Shown here: positions 21,525 through 37,128 of the stretch, piece after piece
Numbering within the stretch: position 1 is the first letter of the stretch
How the letters are laid out: each line of letters begins with the position of its first letter
Virus record (IMG/VR): IMGVR_UViG_3300023284_002577
Location: 1-37,128 of that record
From: a virus
Length of the DNA: 37,128 nucleotides
Direction: 5' to 3' (one strand)
Notes under the pieces: generated by a model
The model's database searches: none
What the model saw: only the letters and a program-made list of their open reading frames with translations
What the model was told of the DNA's origin: nothing
Made by a program: the position numbers and the translations under genes

Positions 21525-21903
21525 CTTCCATCATCTCCAACTTTCGTGCCCCTTCCAAAGTTTTTTTAAACAAATATTGAATCAAATAGGCTCCGATTTC
21601 TTCGCTATTGTCATCTATCTTAAATCCAAAGAATTCTTGAAAATCCTGCAATAGATGATAGCATTCATGGACCAGAACTGGCATCGATAATTTTCCTCTT
21701 ATCAGTAAAAATGACCCCTCCGTTGGATCCCTATATACATACGCTCCCAGGGGGTCCTCGGAGATGTCGATTGCCCCCACCACATAGAGTCGATAAGGAA
21801 AGATGGGTATTATAAATTTTACTCCTTTTATTATTTTATCATCCCTTGGAGGAGGTATATTTTTTTGTAAAAAATCTATCTGACTTTTAATTAGTAATTT
21901 CAT
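21517..21903 (-). CDS. Putative zinc metallopeptidase-like protein (HExxH)
   Basis: VLVHECYHLLQD contains an HExxH motif. 128 aa. Confidence 0.4.
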   Translation of the reverse strand: MKLLIKSQIDFLQKNIPPPRDDKIIKGVKFIIPIFPYRLYVVGAIDISEDPLGAYVYRDPTEGSFLLIRGKLSMPVLVHECYHLLQDFQEFFGFKIDDNSEEIGAYLIQYLFKKTLEGARKLEMMEDV

Positions 21904-22108
21904 CTTCCTTCAACCTCTCCAATTGCAGTCTTACTCGATGAATCGTATCATCACCTGCTTCTTTTCCTATTTGATACCCGGTTTTGTAACCTTCTATAAC
22001 AGCTAAGCTAATAGCCTCTATTAAAATAGCATCCAAATTTAAGGGCTTCTTTTTAGAGACGCGCAAAAACTTCATCAGCCATCTTTTTAAATAAAGTATT
22101 ATTCTCAA
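21887..22108 (-). CDS. Hypothetical protein
   Basis: 73-aa ORF containing IEGYKTGYQIGKEAG, a motif related to the GY..G family on the plus strand. Confidence 0.55.
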   Translation of the reverse strand: MRIILYLKRWLMKFLRVSKKKPLNLDAILIEAISLAVIEGYKTGYQIGKEAGDDTIHRVRLQLERLKEDEITN

Positions 22109-32088: not shown

Positions 32089-32247
32089 ATGCACGAATAT
32101 AATCAAATAGAAGAACTGCGTAGATATGAAGAAGGGTGTAGGCAATGGAAACACGATCTGTTAAGAGAAAGCTGCCTTTATTATTCTCTTTCTTCCCCTA
32201 AACATCCAAAATCATTTATTCGTCGCCTTTTTTCTTTCCTATTTTAG
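32089..32247 (+). CDS. Possible 52-aa ORF downstream of the attenuator
   Basis: GGAG lies 4 nt before the ATG at 32089. Translation MHEYNQIEELRRYEEGCRQWKHDLLRESCLYYSLSSPKHPKSFIRRLFSFLF. Its 3' end overlaps the convergent gene by 32 nt. Confidence 0.3.
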   Translation: MHEYNQIEELRRYEEGCRQWKHDLLRESCLYYSLSSPKHPKSFIRRLFSFLF

Positions 32248-32518
32248 GGGGAGCCTTCCGACCCGTTAAAACTGGCCGATACCAAATAAAATGAAATCTC
32301 TGTCCTATCGAGAAATCTAGCATTCCTTCTGTTTTTCCTTCTCTAATCGCATCATGCAGCTCATCGACTAATTTACTCTTCGCATAGGTGTCCCAGACAG
32401 CAAAGGGAATATCTATCTGCCATGCACGCTCAAATCCGTCTTTTAAAGGCTTCTTGGTGGTGGAAAGGATTAAGTACCCCTCTTTGTCGATGAGGTACCA
32501 TTTTTTGTGGTTTTTCAT
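32216..32518 (-). CDS. Hypothetical protein (isolated leftward gene)
   Basis: 100-aa ORF with a GGGGG SD and a basic C-terminal tail. No recognisable motif. Confidence 0.6.
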   Translation of the reverse strand: MKNHKKWYLIDKEGYLILSTTKKPLKDGFERAWQIDIPFAVWDTYAKSKLVDELHDAIREGKTEGMLDFSIGQRFHFIWYRPVLTGRKAPPKIGKKKGDE

Positions 32519-32628
32519 CCCCCATTTTAAGAGATCTCTTACAGAATGTATAGGATTTGGCTTATATTATTTCTGTTTTGTTTGGCTATACTTTGAGGGT
32601 GTTTAATTAATTGAGGAGGGCGCAGCCC

Positions 32629-32790
32629 ATGACTGAGAACGAAAAATGTATTTATAAGATAGGCTTTAAGGATGCCCTTGTTAGATTATACGAGGTACGC
32701 GGCGTCGCGGAACGGGCGCCCAATTTAGTTAAATTTTCAGAAGAAAAATCTGAAGAAGGTATTAAAATGCTAGAGGGGAAAGGACTATGA
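32629..32790 (+). CDS. Mini-gene array member 1 (subtype A, 53 aa), absent from the ORF track
   Basis: MTENEKCIYKIGFKDALVRLYE...; SD GGAGG followed by the hairpin GGGC-GCA-GCCC. ATGA junction to the next gene. Confidence 0.6.
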   Translation: MTENEKCIYKIGFKDALVRLYEVRGVAERAPNLVKFSEEKSEEGIKMLEGKGL

Positions 32791-32960
32791 CTCACAAAGA
32801 AGATTATTTAGACGGATATATGCAAGGCGCTTTAGATGCTTACGGTTGTTGTTGTAATATAAGGGAGGGAGAGGATTTTTTTCCTATTCCAGAAGCCCTC
32901 AGGTTAAGAAACCAAGAAGAAAAAAGAATAAAAAAATATGAGGAGAACCAAGATGATTGA
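32787..32960 (+). CDS. Mini-gene array member 2 (subtype B, 57 aa), absent from the ORF track
   Basis: MTHKEDYLDGYMQGALDAYGCCCN...ENQDD. Confidence 0.6.
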   Translation: MTHKEDYLDGYMQGALDAYGCCCNIREGEDFFPIPEALRLRNQEEKRIKKYEENQDD

Positions 32961-33120
32961 TTACGAAAAAATGTTATATAAAAGAGGATTTAAAGATGGA
33001 ATCATAGAATTTCTGGAAGCCGACTGCAACGTAAAAAATATAAATATATGGGTCGATAAAAAATGCCAAGAGAACATAGAGGAATTAGAGGGAATAGAAA
33101 GGAGGACGCAAGATGACTGA
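32953..33120 (+). CDS. Mini-gene array member 3 (subtype A, 55 aa)
   Basis: MIDYEKMLYKRGFKDGIIEFLE...RRTQDD. Start at 32953 (GAGGAG SD) rather than 32938. Confidence 0.65.
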   Translation: MIDYEKMLYKRGFKDGIIEFLEADCNVKNINIWVDKKCQENIEELEGIERRTQDD

Positions 33121-33298
33121 TAAAAAATATTATTCCGAAAAAAGTTACTGGGATGGATACGAACAGGGAGCCGAGGACGCATTTAATCACGCTAAAGCAC
33201 AAACGGAAGCGGTTCTAAATGATTTTTATTTAACATCGGATATAAGTATGTTGGCTTATAGATTAACAGATTCTAAAAGAGGAGATGTAAATGACTAA
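33113..33298 (+). CDS. Mini-gene array member 4 (subtype B, 61 aa)
   Basis: MTDKKYYSEKSYWDGYEQGAEDAF...; ATGACTGA overlap. Confidence 0.65.
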   Translation: MTDKKYYSEKSYWDGYEQGAEDAFNHAKAQTEAVLNDFYLTSDISMLAYRLTDSKRGDVND

Positions 33299-33461
33299 AA
33301 GAGACGAGTATGTATATAAAATAGCATTTAGAGATGGAATTTTGGTATCTATGAAATTTCTCGAGGGGCTAGAGGACCCACACATGGATATCCGAGAATT
33401 TGTAAATAACCACTGCACTAAAATGATGGCGGAATTTGAAAAGGAGAACAAAGATGACTGA
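33291..33461 (+). CDS. Mini-gene array member 5 (subtype A, 56 aa), absent from the ORF track
   Basis: MTKRDEYVYKIAFRDGILVSMKFLE...KENKDD; ATGACTAA overlap. Confidence 0.6.
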   Translation: MTKRDEYVYKIAFRDGILVSMKFLEGLEDPHMDIREFVNNHCTKMMAEFEKENKDD

Positions 33462-33624
33462 AAGCGAAACAGAAAAATATTTAGCTGGCTATCTGCAGGG
33501 TGCGATGGACGCGGGAATTAAAATACAAGATGCGAATATTGGGCTTAGAATCATGCATGTATATTCTATAGTAACTGACTTGATAGAGAAGAAAGACCAC
33601 GAGGTGAGGAACGAACATGACTGA
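33454..33624 (+). CDS. Mini-gene array member 6 (subtype B, 56 aa)
   Basis: MTESETEKYLAGYLQGAMDAG...; ATGACTGA overlap. The ORF-track start at 33436 is judged too early. Confidence 0.65.
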   Translation: MTESETEKYLAGYLQGAMDAGIKIQDANIGLRIMHVYSIVTDLIEKKDHEVRNEHD

Positions 33625-33802
33625 CCACGAACAAGAAATATATATGAAAGGATATGCAAGAGCCTTGGACACAGATTTTGAATTACTCTTTTTAAAAGGG
33701 TTTCAAAGTGCATCCATTTTAAGGGACTTTAAAGAAAAGCGCTTAATAAATGAAATAGAAAGATTAAATTTAAATAAACCAGAGGTAAAGGATGATGACT
33801 AA
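33617..33802 (+). CDS. Mini-gene array member 7 (subtype B-like, 61 aa)
   Basis: MTDHEQEIYMKGYARALDTDF...; ATGACTGA overlap. Confidence 0.65.
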   Translation: MTDHEQEIYMKGYARALDTDFELLFLKGFQSASILRDFKEKRLINEIERLNLNKPEVKDDD

Positions 33803-34037
33803 TTTAAAAATAGAATGGGATAAATTGGAACTATTAAATAGGAGGGATACCATGCTTATTGACAAAAAAATAGTGGATTTAGATAATTTGACTTATGAGA
33901 TATCTGTGTTACTAGAGAAAAGGATGGGCGTGGAAGAAGGAGACTTGCTAGAACTCAACGATTTAAGTGGCCAACTGGTAGATAAGTTTGATAAGTTTGT
34001 GCATGGGATTGAAAATAAGAGGAAAGATAATGAATGA
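33792..34037 (+). CDS. Hypothetical helical protein ending ENKRKDNE
   Basis: 81 aa; alternative start at 33795 gives an ATGACTAA junction. The C-terminus and following junction are duplicated at the next gene. Confidence 0.65.
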   Translation: MMTNLKIEWDKLELLNRRDTMLIDKKIVDLDNLTYEISVLLEKRMGVEEGDLLELNDLSGQLVDKFDKFVHGIENKRKDNE

Positions 34038-34245
34038 AGAAACTGTTAGCCCAGTCCGTCATCGATTTGAGGAAGCTTCTAGTCAGTATTATATTCTGTT
34101 TAAGGAATTGGATATCTTAAACGAGCTTTCCCTTTTCGTGAATCAAGGTTACTTAACTACCAGGCGAGAATTATTTAACCTTCTTAATGGGGAAGTGCGA
34201 GCTATTATTGAACACTATGAAAATAAGAGGAAAGATAATGAATAA
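34030..34245 (+). CDS. Hypothetical helical protein ending ENKRKDNE
   Basis: Start at MNEETV (ATG 34030, ATGAATGA overlap). Shares the 25-nt repeat GAAAATAAGAGGAAAGATAATGAAT. Confidence 0.6.
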   Translation: MNEETVSPVRHRFEEASSQYYILFKELDILNELSLFVNQGYLTTRRELFNLLNGEVRAIIEHYENKRKDNE

Positions 34246-34483
34246 AAATTCTGAAATATTTAGACAAGCGCGTAGGGATTTTGCCGTAGGCATGCGTGCT
34301 TTTGGAGATTTATTTCACTCTTTACTTCTTCTTTCTTTTGAAAAAAATATTCACTTTAAAGATGACTTCCAGATTCTAAAGTCGGAACATAATAAAATTG
34401 AAGAGAACTTGTGGGATTTGATACAAACATTTGAGATATCTCTTACAGCATCTGACGGCGATAGCCAGCCGCTAGTAAATTAA
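34238..34483 (+). CDS. Hypothetical protein
   Basis: Start at MNKNSE (ATG 34238, ATGAATAA overlap). Confidence 0.6.
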   Translation: MNKNSEIFRQARRDFAVGMRAFGDLFHSLLLLSFEKNIHFKDDFQILKSEHNKIEENLWDLIQTFEISLTASDGDSQPLVN

Positions 34484-34533
34484 CTCCCGTGGTCTATACT
34501 GGATATATGTTAATAAAAAGGAGGGCGAAGCCC

Positions 34534-34695
34534 ATGATGGATCTAAATGAAATTCAAAGGAATATAGAAAATAGTGGCATTGTTAAAGAGATTGATAAAT
34601 TTCGAATAATGCTTAAACATTTTAAAGAATATATTGATAAGAAAGATCAAGATCTTATCGTGATGAGAAGTGAAGTTGAAGGAGAAAGGAAATGA
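34534..34695 (+). CDS. Small hypothetical protein (53 aa)
   Basis: The ATG at 34534 is preceded by GGAGGGCGAAGCCC, the same SD-hairpin leader as at 32615. Confidence 0.55.
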   Translation: MMDLNEIQRNIENSGIVKEIDKFRIMLKHFKEYIDKKDQDLIVMRSEVEGERK

Positions 34696-34985
34696 ATGAG
34701 AAATTTGATATTGAAAAATTGTTAAATAATTATTTTTCCGATGGAAATAATTATAGGAATGATGCGACCAGCGCAAAAGCTACCTTAGACATCTGGAATG
34801 ACACGCACGAAGTTCCTTCGCCAGAAGAACTGATAAGATGTGATCATGTTCTTAGAACGGAGATTACCACCTATATTAAAGAAGAATATAAAACTTTTTA
34901 TTTTGAAAAGATGAGTAAACTACACCGCCAATGTTGGATAGAATTGTGTAAATATGCTCAAAAAAAGGAGAATGAAAATGAATAA
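34692..34985 (+). CDS. Hypothetical protein
   Basis: 97-aa ORF with an ATGA overlap. Confidence 0.6.
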   Translation: MNEKFDIEKLLNNYFSDGNNYRNDATSAKATLDIWNDTHEVPSPEELIRCDHVLRTEITTYIKEEYKTFYFEKMSKLHRQCWIELCKYAQKKENENE

Positions 34986-35160
34986 AGAGAATTGGAAATA
35001 TTTAGACGCGTTTTCTAAAGGAGTAATAGCCGCTTCTTATCAATTATGGCTTAAGGGGGAGGGAAATCAATATCTTACTTCGTCGCTTACTAACGCGGTA
35101 GAAGTTTGCATGCATGAAGCTATAATTGTAGCTGACAGGGAGAATACAGATGATACTTAA
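34978..35160 (+). CDS. Small hypothetical protein (60 aa)
   Basis: ATG at 34978, 7 nt after AAGGAG; ATGAATAA overlap with the upstream stop. Confidence 0.55.
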   Translation: MNKENWKYLDAFSKGVIAASYQLWLKGEGNQYLTSSLTNAVEVCMHEAIIVADRENTDDT

Positions 35161-35554
35161 TACTCAAAACGTTAAAAATACTCTAGAGAAATGGATGCAA
35201 GATAGAAAGATTGAGGATTGGGCAGACATAGATAATTTTGATACGCTCGAACTCGCTGCTCATTTAATTTTAGATAATCCAGAATTGCTACGAGAACTAG
35301 GCATGGAATTTAGAGAACCTCTTTCTACAAGTTTAGGAAAAATGATTCTTTATCCGCATAATGAATTAAATAAAGAAGATTTTTTATTAACACTGTATGG
35401 AGATGTGATTGTTGAAGTTGAAGAATATCTGATGGATGTTTTTAAACAACTCAAAGAAGAAATGTCGGTTGATGAAACGGCTTCGCATTATGTTGATGAA
35501 GAATGGATGCTTGATTCTTATCATCGTGCTGAAGATATGAGGCTCACACGATGA
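35150..35554 (+). CDS. Strongly acidic hypothetical protein
   Basis: 134 aa with 31 Asp+Glu by direct count. Confidence 0.6.
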   Translation: MILNTQNVKNTLEKWMQDRKIEDWADIDNFDTLELAAHLILDNPELLRELGMEFREPLSTSLGKMILYPHNELNKEDFLLTLYGDVIVEVEEYLMDVFKQLKEEMSVDETASHYVDEEWMLDSYHRAEDMRLTR

Positions 35555-35736
35555 TGGAAATAATATACGATATAGGAAAATTTATAATAGGGATTGGGGT
35601 GGTGATTTTGTGTGGGTATGCGATCATCGTGGTAATTTTGATTTTATATAAGCTTCGCCATTTACCCTTTGAATTCATAAAATTGATTTTAGATGATGAT
35701 GATGAAGACCCTTTTCACGACGATTATATTAAATAA
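35551..35736 (+). CDS. Small membrane protein with a poly-acidic tail
   Basis: Hydrophobic IGKFIIGIGVVILCGYAIIVVILILY, then DDDDEDPFHDD. Confidence 0.55.
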   Translation: MMEIIYDIGKFIIGIGVVILCGYAIIVVILILYKLRHLPFEFIKLILDDDDEDPFHDDYIK

Positions 35737-35743
35737 GGAAAAT

Positions 35744-35899
35744 ATGATGGGAATTTTAGGACACATGTTATTTATACTATCTTTAACCCTGGGAGCACTC
35801 TTATTCATTTGCTGGGTGTTGTTAATGATTTACCTTGTTATTTTATATTTTTATATTGTTATTAAGATGACGATTGAACTAATAATGGAGAGGAAATGA
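35744..35899 (+). CDS. Small membrane protein (51 aa)
   Basis: ATG at 35744 after AAGGAA. Translation MMGILGHMLFILSLTLGALLFICWVLLMIYLVILYFYIVIK... Confidence 0.5.
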   Translation: MMGILGHMLFILSLTLGALLFICWVLLMIYLVILYFYIVIKMTIELIMERK

Positions 35900-36108
35900 A
35901 AAATAAATTTATTTGGATAGCGATTGTGTGGATTTCTGTTTTTATAATAGGAGAAGTGGTTGGCGCCATAACTGGTATGTGTGTAGGTCTGTCTTTTTCT
36001 ACTAGTGTTTCTCGAGGGGCGGAGGCAACTATAGGCCCCCTTTGTATAGGTGCTCTGTTCTCGACAGGATGTGCGATTATAGAAGATTGGTGGAGGGAGA
36101 AGCCATGA
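35896..36108 (+). CDS. Small membrane protein (2 TM)
   Basis: 70 aa with an ATGA overlap and two hydrophobic segments. Confidence 0.55.
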   Translation: MKNKFIWIAIVWISVFIIGEVVGAITGMCVGLSFSTSVSRGAEATIGPLCIGALFSTGCAIIEDWWREKP

Positions 36109-36330: not shown

Positions 36331-36675
36331 TTATGGGGCGGTTCGAGCTTTTAGGAATACGTCTGCTTTTTCTTTGGCTGCCGCTAATTCTATTGCTAAT
36401 TCTGATGATTTTCGGGCTAATCTGTCCGCGGCTTTCATTTTTGCTTTCATTTTTGTTTTCCTTTTTTCTTTTTCTTTTGCTTCTGCCTCTGCTGCTACTT
36501 CTGCTTCTGCTTTTGATACTTCATTCCATGCGTATTCTGAGTCTGCTACTGCTTCTCTCCAGGGTTCCGAGGCTTTCAGGGTTTTGTGTTCGATTAAGTC
36601 TGCTATTGCGTTTAATTTTTCCCAGTTTTTATAGGCTTTGGATGCTTTTTCTCTTAAAATTTCTAGTTTAGTCAT
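36331..36675 (-). CDS. Hypothetical Ala/Glu/Lys-rich helical protein
   Basis: 114 aa with the leader AACAAAAGGATAAAATCATG. The Leu-rich antisense ORFs are judged to be artefacts. Confidence 0.6.
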   Translation of the reverse strand: MTKLEILREKASKAYKNWEKLNAIADLIEHKTLKASEPWREAVADSEYAWNEVSKAEAEVAAEAEAKEKEKRKTKMKAKMKAADRLARKSSELAIELAAAKEKADVFLKARTAP

Positions 36676-36828: not shown

Positions 36829-37128
36829 TCAACCTTCTTCAGTTGCTTCAATCCCAGTGAGTTTTTGAGCTGCCCACAAAGTGGTGTAAAATTCGTCACT
36901 GTAGGGTTCTAATTCATCGGGTCTGGGCCATTCGATCGCGCCATCATTGATGACTATTCTATTTATGTATTGTTGTAGAGTTTTTTCATCAAGTTTTATA
37001 AAATCTTCGTATTTTGCATCAAGCGGCATATCGTAATATACATACACTTCAATGTCTTTGTAGATGCATTCGCGATAAAATTCGTAAGCAGTTTCTTCGC
37101 AATTTAAATCATCATCGGAATGGCACCA
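36829..37128 (-). CDS. Acidic 124-aa hypothetical protein, truncated by the window end (5' 75 nt are at 145..219)
   Basis: Same reading frame as the ORF starting at 219 once the 144-bp overlap is collapsed. Confidence 0.7.
   Translation of the reverse strand, partial: WCHSDDDLNCEETAYEFYRECIYKDIEVYVYYDMPLDAKYEDFIKLDEKTLQQYINRIVINDGAIEWPRPDELEPYSDEFYTTLWAAQKLTGIEATEEG
36985..37128. repeat. Terminal direct repeat, copy B (identical to 1..144)
   Basis: Exact 144-nt match to the window start. It lies inside an ORF, so it is not a non-coding physical end. Confidence 0.95.

Follow-up and report, generated by a model that had tools for sequence, protein, structure and literature searches.

Background

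Why would a phage carry seven overlapping mini-genes in a row, and what process assembled them? The question is raised by IMG/VR virus record IMGVR_UViG_3300023284_002577, whose whole analysed stretch of 37,128 nucleotides we call the window. Seven ATG-initiated open reading frames (ORFs) tile positions 32629-33802 of its plus strand, and we refer to them as the array. An initial annotation saw in the array alternating paralogs of two subtypes, A and B, and explained their order by triplication of a two-gene cassette. We will present evidence for the subtypes and against the triplication. We believe, at a probability of about 0.55, that these are seven real genes opening a polycistronic operon, and that they form a reassorted accessory block of small host-factor modulators that would serve takeover or counter-defence.

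The array and its coding status

The ORFs are 53, 57, 55, 61, 56, 56 and 61 amino acids long, and their starts (32629, 32787, 32953, 33113, 33291, 33454 and 33617) are spaced 158-178 nucleotides apart. The order is A1 B1 A2 B2 A3 B3 B4, three A genes and four B genes. The list gives the motif of each gene and its occurrence on two related contigs, L001 (4.4 kb) and L002 (25 kb).

32629..32790, plus strand: A1, 53 amino acids, motif YKIGFKDA, the only near-neutral member (isoelectric point, pI, 6.2); absent from L001
32787..32960, plus strand: B1, 57 amino acids, motif YLDGYMQGALDA; absent from L001
32953..33120, plus strand: A2, 55 amino acids, motif YKRGFKDG; the L001 ortholog has two amino-acid changes
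33113..33298, plus strand: B2, 61 amino acids, motif YWDGYEQGAEDA; the L001 ortholog has one synonymous change
33291..33461, plus strand: A3, 56 amino acids, motif YKIAFRDG; orthologs in L001 and L002 (P0009)
33454..33624, plus strand: B3, 56 amino acids, motif YLAGYLQGAMDA; absent from L001
33617..33802, plus strand: B4, 61 amino acids, degenerate motif YMKGYARA and a second copy FLKGFQSA; directly 3' of A3 in L001

The starts, spacing and overlapping junctions described by the initial annotation are all borne out. It had put four of the seven ORFs below 60 amino acids; counting from the ATG, the number is five.

At each junction the start of one gene overlaps the stop of the gene before it by 4 or 8 nucleotides (ATGA or ATGAYTRA). 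The A1/B1 junction is ATGA, B1/A2 is ATGATTGA, and the others are ATGACTGA or ATGACTAA. There are six copies of ATGACTGA in the window against 1.24 expected; four are array start codons, and a fifth, at 28278-28271 on the minus strand, is likewise a start/stop junction. A Shine-Dalgarno (SD) core of 4-6 nucleotides lies 6-10 nucleotides 5' of the ATG in all seven array genes. Comparable SD sequences precede eight of the nine remaining operon genes and 19 of 37 genes surveyed outside the operon. The junction dictates both ends of the array proteins: the N-terminus reads MT(D/E), and about seven C-terminal residues, ending ..(N/D/H)D, are encoded by the next SD and the ..DD-stop.

The pattern of substitution is that of proteins under constraint. 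Over the full length of A3 and its L002 ortholog the proportion of synonymous differences (pS) is 0.60 and that of nonsynonymous differences (pN) 0.31, for a nonsynonymous to synonymous rate ratio (dN/dS) of 0.34. Between paralogs in the array synonymous sites are saturated, with pN 0.38-0.46. In the 15-codon window around the motif most within-family pairs have pS 0.75-1 and pN 0.18-0.34, the pair A2-A3 being the exception to saturation. Because synonymous sites are saturated while pN stays low, the motif must have been kept by protein-level selection and not by recent copying of DNA. The same saturation in most pairs led us to reject the idea that the motif spread through recent copying of an extended junction. 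The duplications or acquisitions behind the array are old, and no recent duplication in situ is visible.

Could the ORFs be untranslated, with a repeated element in the DNA or RNA producing the whole pattern as a side effect? All seven are shorter than 62 amino acids and have no database homolog beyond the three contigs, which is what such a view would expect. However, it has to explain why seven of seven genes have both a strong SD and a stop/start overlap that is in phase, why a motif is conserved in protein against saturated synonymous sites, and why dN/dS is 0.34. There is no tandem DNA repeat beyond the junctions, and the only Rfam matches in the window are tRNAs located elsewhere. We give this view next to no weight. 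The seven ORFs are genuine protein-coding genes under purifying selection, as the initial annotation had supposed.

Two families and a shared motif

The two subtypes are real, and their shared motifs, whose significance the initial annotation had made one of the points on which its claim could fail, are significant within each family. We scored pairs by local alignment against 1000 shuffles, with the junction-encoded residues trimmed beforehand. Within A the z-scores are 7.9 for A1-A2, 5.5 for A2-A3 and 4.7 for A1-A3. Within B they are 10.1 for B1-B3, 7.7 for B1-B2, 4.6 for B3-B4 and 4.5 for B2-B3. No A-versus-B pair exceeds 2.8, and a separate run of pairwise statistics gave the same picture. 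When the two families were aligned with hhalign, 18 N-terminal residues were matched at a probability of 5.6%. We dropped common ancestry of A and B on the basis of that probability.

The similarity is limited to about the first 20 residues. C-terminal halves aligned alone give nothing significant within A, and within B only marginal scores for B2-B4 (z 2.95) and B3-B4 (z 2.17). The multiple alignment of family A does show weak collinear conservation beyond the N-terminus, for example (K/H)C...(I/M)..(L/F)E.

A single pattern, [YFW]xx[GA][FYWLI]xx[GA], covers the motif of both families. It occurs within the first 25 residues of all seven array proteins against 0.036 expected from shuffling, a figure to be read knowing that the pattern was composed after the sequences had been inspected. 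It recurs in sequences that played no part in its definition, namely non-orthologous mini-genes of L001 and L002 and the operon gene at 34978. Among six-frame ORFs of at least 45 amino acids (about 26,000 residues outside the operon) there are 16 matches, nine in the operon and seven scattered elsewhere. One of those seven is YKTGYQIG at 21988, in the minus-strand gene at 21887-22108 that the initial annotation took for an echo of the motif. The motif stands there at background frequency, and we rejected this gene as a family member.

Predicted structure

All seven array proteins are hydrophilic and without transmembrane segments, and six are acidic, with pI 4.6-5.0 and a net charge of -4 to -6. 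The AlphaFold2 model of A2 has a helix at residues 3-25, a loop, and a helix at 30-54, with a mean predicted local distance difference test score (pLDDT) of 81; the B3 model has helices at 3-19 and 27-55 and a pLDDT of 68. The models predict that each product is a helix-loop-helix hairpin of about 55-60 amino acids whose loop and second helix are essentially free to vary. The motif sits in predicted helix 1, where its G/A residues fall four apart beside aromatics. Small-xxx-small stripes serve close helix packing, and we infer that this pattern is such a stripe, suited to packing one helix closely against another.

Nothing significant was found for the seven proteins or their neighbours in Pfam, PHROGs or NCBIfam. 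A sequence profile search of PDB gave no match, and Foldseek returned zero matches for the A2 and B3 models against PDB and for the A2 model against BFVD.

A conserved N-terminus followed by freely diverging sequence, found on many non-orthologous cassettes, invites another interpretation. The first 20 or so residues might be a targeting signal on unrelated cargo, either for capsid packaging and co-injection or for a common phage or host partner. There is a precedent in the T-even internal proteins, described as a varied group of defence inhibitors with nothing in common but a capsid-targeting sequence (PMC3012670). However, the array motif is predicted to be integral to helix 1 of a compact hairpin and not a detachable leader, and it exists in two distinct forms. 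Of the 20 larger proteins scanned, none was recognised as a prohead protease, and the array is a long way from the head genes, within an operon whose style is early or accessory. We think a targeting signal quite improbable, and continue to read the motif as part of the fold.

Relatives and the unit of exchange

The initial annotation had called for a profile search of metagenomic phage proteins. We searched a seven-sequence profile against 5.8 billion proteins, ran it with full HMMER against 1.84 billion cluster representatives, and used a 17-sequence superfamily profile as well. These searches placed the family on no more than three contigs, namely the window, L001 and L002. A gene of 134 amino acids downstream of the array, which we use as an anchor, has homologs on the same three contigs alone among the 5.8 billion proteins, and when viral, genome and metagenome collections were searched for related loci with this anchor and with the portal protein, no relatives turned up. 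Two candidates were discarded. The profile match to P0008, a eukaryote-like repeat protein of 1402 amino acids, is spurious, since its score sums nine weak repeats; a tblastn match of B2 to phages at E=2 lies inside a 1067-amino-acid Vibrio phage protein and is due to chance. A2 had no tblastn match to phages.

On all three contigs the slot between an anchor gene of 100 amino acids and the conserved downstream genes holds seven mini-genes (1174, 1180 and 1188 nucleotides). Besides the order given above for the window, the orders are:

L001: X1 A2 B2 A3 B4 X2 X3
L002: Y1 Y2 Y3 A(Y4) Y5 X3 Y7

In L001 one unrelated gene replaces A1 and B1, B3 is missing so that A3 abuts B4, and two other mini-genes have been inserted. 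A single A-type gene is present in L002, which lacks a canonical B. The helix-1 motif is found on most of the X and Y genes, whose sequences are otherwise unrelated. Despite the different cassette content, nucleotide identity is 94-98% in the genes common to the window and L001. The unit of exchange is therefore the one-gene cassette and not the A-B pair.

This bears directly on the triplication that the initial annotation had read from the order of the genes, and the gene content of both L001 and L002 speaks against it. The similarity orders of the two families are also incongruent: A1-A3 is the most distant A pair, and B1-B3 is the closest B pair.

It is still worth weighing the stronger form of the idea, in which a triplicated A-B module encodes obligate A-B heterodimers, for example four-helix bundles built from two hairpins. 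The window order A-B-A-B-A-B-B suggests it, A2-B2-A3 stay together in L001, and both types are predicted hairpins with the small-xxx-small stripe in helix 1. A lone hairpin of 55 amino acids would probably need a partner to bury its hydrophobic face. But L001, having lost A1 and B1 jointly, has lost B3 alone, which leaves A3 next to B4, and it has motif-bearing genes that are neither A nor B. L002 does not offer a canonical B for its single A. The incongruent similarity orders, the saturated synonymous sites of the paralogs and the low-probability hhalign match of A to B count against a module copied as a pair. We consider a triplicated module of obligate heterodimers rather unlikely.

The array is instead a hypervariable block of single-gene cassettes bounded by portable junctions. 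The initial annotation had likened its diversification to that of counter-defence or host-takeover families. The array does sit in a region that varies among close relatives, as is typical of accessory loci for host interaction or counter-defence.

The joints between shared and unshared sequence fall in the junctions. All five breakpoints between the window and L001 lie inside an SD..ATGACTRA junction. Cassette X3 is 91% identical between slot 7 of L001 and slot 6 of L002, the identity runs from its ATG to the next SD, and its flanking junctions are of different types on the two contigs. Junction types such as GAGGAGGGCG(C/A)AGCCC-ATGA and GTGAGGAACGAAC-ATGACTGA recur before unrelated genes. 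Junction elements can also be duplicated without their gene bodies: one of 36 nucleotides, encoding the C-terminal tail ENKRKDNE, is present at both 34010-34045 and 34218-34253. This duplication shows that junction elements can mimic protein paralogy. A second tandem paralog family within 33795-34483, suggested by z=8 between the adjacent genes 33795-34037 and 34030-34245, was rejected when the score dropped to 0.95 after eight junction residues were trimmed; these two genes have only the duplicated junction in common.

Junctions as possible linkers

The coupled-junction architecture also occurs outside this phage, in numerous unrelated viral contigs. Scanned for three ATGACTRA motifs at a spacing of 150-180 nucleotides, IMG/VR yielded at least 119 loci, against 41 for a control motif of matched composition. 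Among the matches listed, 27 of 119 are fully coupled chains of ORFs of 45-70 amino acids ending [N/D/H/Y]D, with proteins unrelated to those of the array. Some chains among the matches listed are tandem paralogs (L004, L050, L118 and L121), and one phage group (L010, L031, L039, L076 and L122) has the same cassettes with different neighbours.

Given these chains, the junction might be a shuffling linker of general use. In its fullest form the idea is that SD-ATGACTRA is a portable, dual-coding linker, which encodes ..[N/D/H/Y]D-stop and Met-Thr-[D/E/K/N] and doubles as micro-homology for the excision, insertion and reordering of cassettes across unrelated phage lineages, much like an integron without a dedicated recombinase. 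We offer this version tentatively and on the whole doubt it. The locus is an unusually clean example of mosaic joints that fall inside an 8-nucleotide start/stop overlap and ribosome-binding site. The positions of such joints bear on a long-standing question, namely whether linker sequences guide phage mosaicism or selection alone filters it.

Operon and genome context

At least the first 127 nucleotides of the window are repeated at 36984 (the ends are 1-145 and 36984-37128). The shared ends identify the window as a complete genome of about 36,983 bp, either assembled as a circle or terminally redundant. Recognised genes include the small and large terminase, a P22-type portal, a head-closure protein and a major head protein, as well as RecE-like and RecT-like proteins, a polynucleotide kinase, a helix-turn-helix (HTH) regulator, a weak RepA-like initiator and tRNA-Ser. 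The portal is only about 23% identical to portals of Vibrio and Thalassomonas podophages, and most window proteins have no PHROG. The array region and 20 kb of the genome gave no megablast match to 50,697 phage records. The phage lineage is new.

The array is the promoter-proximal end of a rightward operon of about 16 small coupled genes, some 3.5 kb long (32629-36108), which lies between the replication region (RepA-like gene and tRNAs) and the packaging genes. Nearly all of its genes start within the end of the preceding gene (ATGA or ATGAYTRA), behind a strong SD. The features around the array are as follows.

32216..32518, minus strand: divergent gene of 100 amino acids, left anchor of the slot; 91-94% nucleotide identity in L001 and L002
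32519..32628, no strand assigned: divergent intergenic region of 110 nucleotides that includes the SD of A1 (AGGAGGGCGCAGCCC-ATG); conserved in L001 and L002
33795-34037, 34030-34245 and 34238-34483, plus strand: three further coupled genes directly after the array
34978..35160, plus strand: an eighth motif-bearing mini-gene, 60 amino acids, YLDAFSKG; orthologs in L001 and L002
35150..35554, plus strand: gene of 134 amino acids, very acidic (pI 4.4), right anchor of the variable region; amino-acid identity 88-96% (L002/L001)
35551-36108, plus strand: three transmembrane mini-proteins (61, 68 and 70 amino acids) closing the operon; sequences diverge among the window, L001 and L002
36307..36326, called on the minus strand: terminator-like hairpin between the operon end and a convergent gene at 36331-36675

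The left anchor has no significant match in Pfam, PHROGs or NCBIfam (best PHROG E 0.048). In L002 a SocA_Panacea (antitoxin-like) gene lies upstream of this anchor, at 59-517, and the window differs there.

The intergenic region presumably holds the operon promoter. A promoter scan of 32519-32628 gave a weak plus-strand candidate, TTGTTT-18-TTTAAT, and a leftward promoter-like site at 32552-32524. Further upstream, at 31982-32071, is a near-consensus promoter-like site (TTGACA-17-TAAACT with TG). A terminator-like hairpin with a T-run comes about 45 nucleotides after it, and the two together might specify a short RNA, or a leader under regulation, directed at the array. L001 is without some 144 nucleotides just downstream of that site (32080-32223).

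Two other parts of the window deserve mention. The stretch 29200-32200 is poor in ORFs, contains several terminator-like hairpins and lies beside the weak RepA-like initiator (29634-30422), and it may be an origin or regulatory region. It includes tRNA-Ser(CGA) at 31064-31134 and a weak tRNA-like Rfam match at 30788-30886 that ARAGORN did not call. On the minus strand, 28443-28688 and 28933-29175 are paralogous zinc-ribbon mini-genes (CxxC...CxxC, z=43) with a third Cys-rich gene between them at 28688-28936. Several genes of the leftward operon around 28443-29175 start MT(N/K/D) or end ..ND, in the junction style of the array.

The position of the operon suggests one more alternative, that the mini-proteins serve the phage's own programme (replication, timing of transcription, assembly or superinfection exclusion) and that their variability is co-variation with phage modules. 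The location of the operon between the replication and packaging genes fits this, as do the three membrane mini-proteins at its end, and the scans of its genes brought up no known anti-defence domain. However, the window and L001 differ in their cassettes while being almost identical in what they share, which core functions would not easily tolerate, and the proteins are acidic with no DNA-binding signature. We regard a role in the phage's own programme as unlikely, and turn to the host-directed role that we favour.

A proposed mechanism

Because gene starts overlap the preceding ends behind strong SD sequences, a single coupled polycistronic mRNA is most likely. The genes would be translated from it by termination-reinitiation at the 4- and 8-nucleotide overlaps. 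The products would be small protein-binding modulators aimed at host factors, for takeover or counter-defence. Conserved helix 1 could supply a common scaffold or dimerisation surface, and the variable remainder of each protein would set the specificity for its target. Recombination between the short stretches of homology in the junctions would reassort the cassettes, possibly aided by the phage's own RecE and RecT. Mosaicism between sequences that have diverged is reported to be driven by single-strand annealing recombinases of phages (PMC3945230).

We propose a dispensable, host-directed role because near-identical relatives vary in these genes, the proteins are small and acidic, the ribosome-binding sites are strong, and known regions offer an analogy. 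Anti-defence and host-takeover factors commonly occur in such loci, and by that analogy takeover or counter-defence is plausible.

Several points weigh against this reading. If recombination were random and illegitimate and selection then kept only intact genes, breakpoints would lie at gene boundaries just the same; joints filtered in this way fit equally well, so junction-guided exchange stays something we infer. The cassette dynamics rest on three genomes and few events. The alignments behind the AlphaFold models are shallow, with 5-6 rows, and confidence in B3 is modest. There is no HTH marker of the aca type, and the operon genes have no known anti-defence domain in Pfam, PHROGs or NCBIfam. 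The promoter scan found no consensus sigma-70 promoter directly upstream of the array, and its early expression is assumed from position and gene style only.

If the reading is true, the phage and its close relatives hold a natural library of about 20 two-helix mini-proteins of about 55 amino acids, built on a common scaffold helix and swapped among them. The practical value is limited for now, with the family on three metagenomic contigs only.

Comparison with known systems

The closest parallel in behaviour is found in the hyperplastic regions of T4-type phages, where variable blocks of small genes are shuffled by way of promoter-early stem-loop (PeSL) cassettes (Arbiol et al. 2010, PMC2839356; Comeau et al. 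2014, PMC4122927). In both cases the genes are small and mostly ORFans, dispensable there and presumably here, and between close relatives single genes have been inserted, deleted or replaced. As in PeSL shuffling, the points of exchange coincide with a short repeated motif between genes; here this is true of all the window-L001 breakpoints and of both ends of X3. The motif itself is different, being a translational junction (SD and 8-nucleotide overlap) and not a promoter-terminator pair. No promoter or terminator was found at the array junctions, where the overlaps leave no intergenic space. The array genes also lie in one coupled operon of a phage unrelated to T4.

The T-even internal proteins IPI-III come from a polymorphic locus, share an N-terminal capsid-targeting sequence and act in counter-defence in T4 (PMC3012670). 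The array resembles them in having small proteins in which a conserved N-terminal segment is followed by unrelated, fast-evolving sequence, and in its polymorphic locus. It differs in having no similarity to them in sequence and in its motif, which is predicted to belong to the structure of the hairpin; no protease site was identified.

The host-takeover module of SPO1 contains 26 small genes (PMC6873191), and anti-CRISPR and anti-defence gene clusters are variable blocks of small genes (PMC7648647). Like them, the array consists of very small acidic genes with no assigned family and strong ribosome-binding sites, in a slot of variable content. Unlike them, it has no match to a known takeover, anti-CRISPR or anti-restriction family and no adjacent aca-like HTH regulator.

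Two structural comparisons are also informative. Soluble helices with GxxxG repeats, as in the N-terminal domain of Yae1/Lto1 (Pfam PF09811) and the glycine repeats of FliH/YscL, associate tightly with other helices. The array motif likewise puts small residues four apart on one helix face, often beside aromatic or charged residues, but it has only 2-3 small-xxx-small steps (at most G-x3-G-x3-A, in B1-B3) where those families have long repeats. None of 17 members matched Yae1_N or any other Pfam family, even at E <= 10. The WXG100/Esx proteins are encoded by tandem genes for two kinds of helix-turn-helix hairpin, and Esx pairs form heterodimeric four-helix bundles. The tandem genes and the two kinds of hairpin are shared, but the array proteins have 53-61 amino acids against about 100 and no type VII secretion context. 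W-x-G is absent from the predicted loops (A2 residues 26-29, B3 residues 20-26), and there is no Pfam WXG100 match at E <= 10. The adjacency of A and B is also not conserved as it is in Esx pairs, since A3 is followed by B3 in the window and by B4 in L001.

As for integrons, there are no attC-like inverted-repeat sites between the overlapping genes and no integrase was recognised among the scanned proteins. By analogy, then, the array appears to work like these variable regions, but we do not file it as a member of any of them because, apart from breakpoints at a repeated motif, their testable defining features are absent. The kind of phage region that houses the array is already known. What is new is the protein family inside it, which is extremely narrowly distributed.

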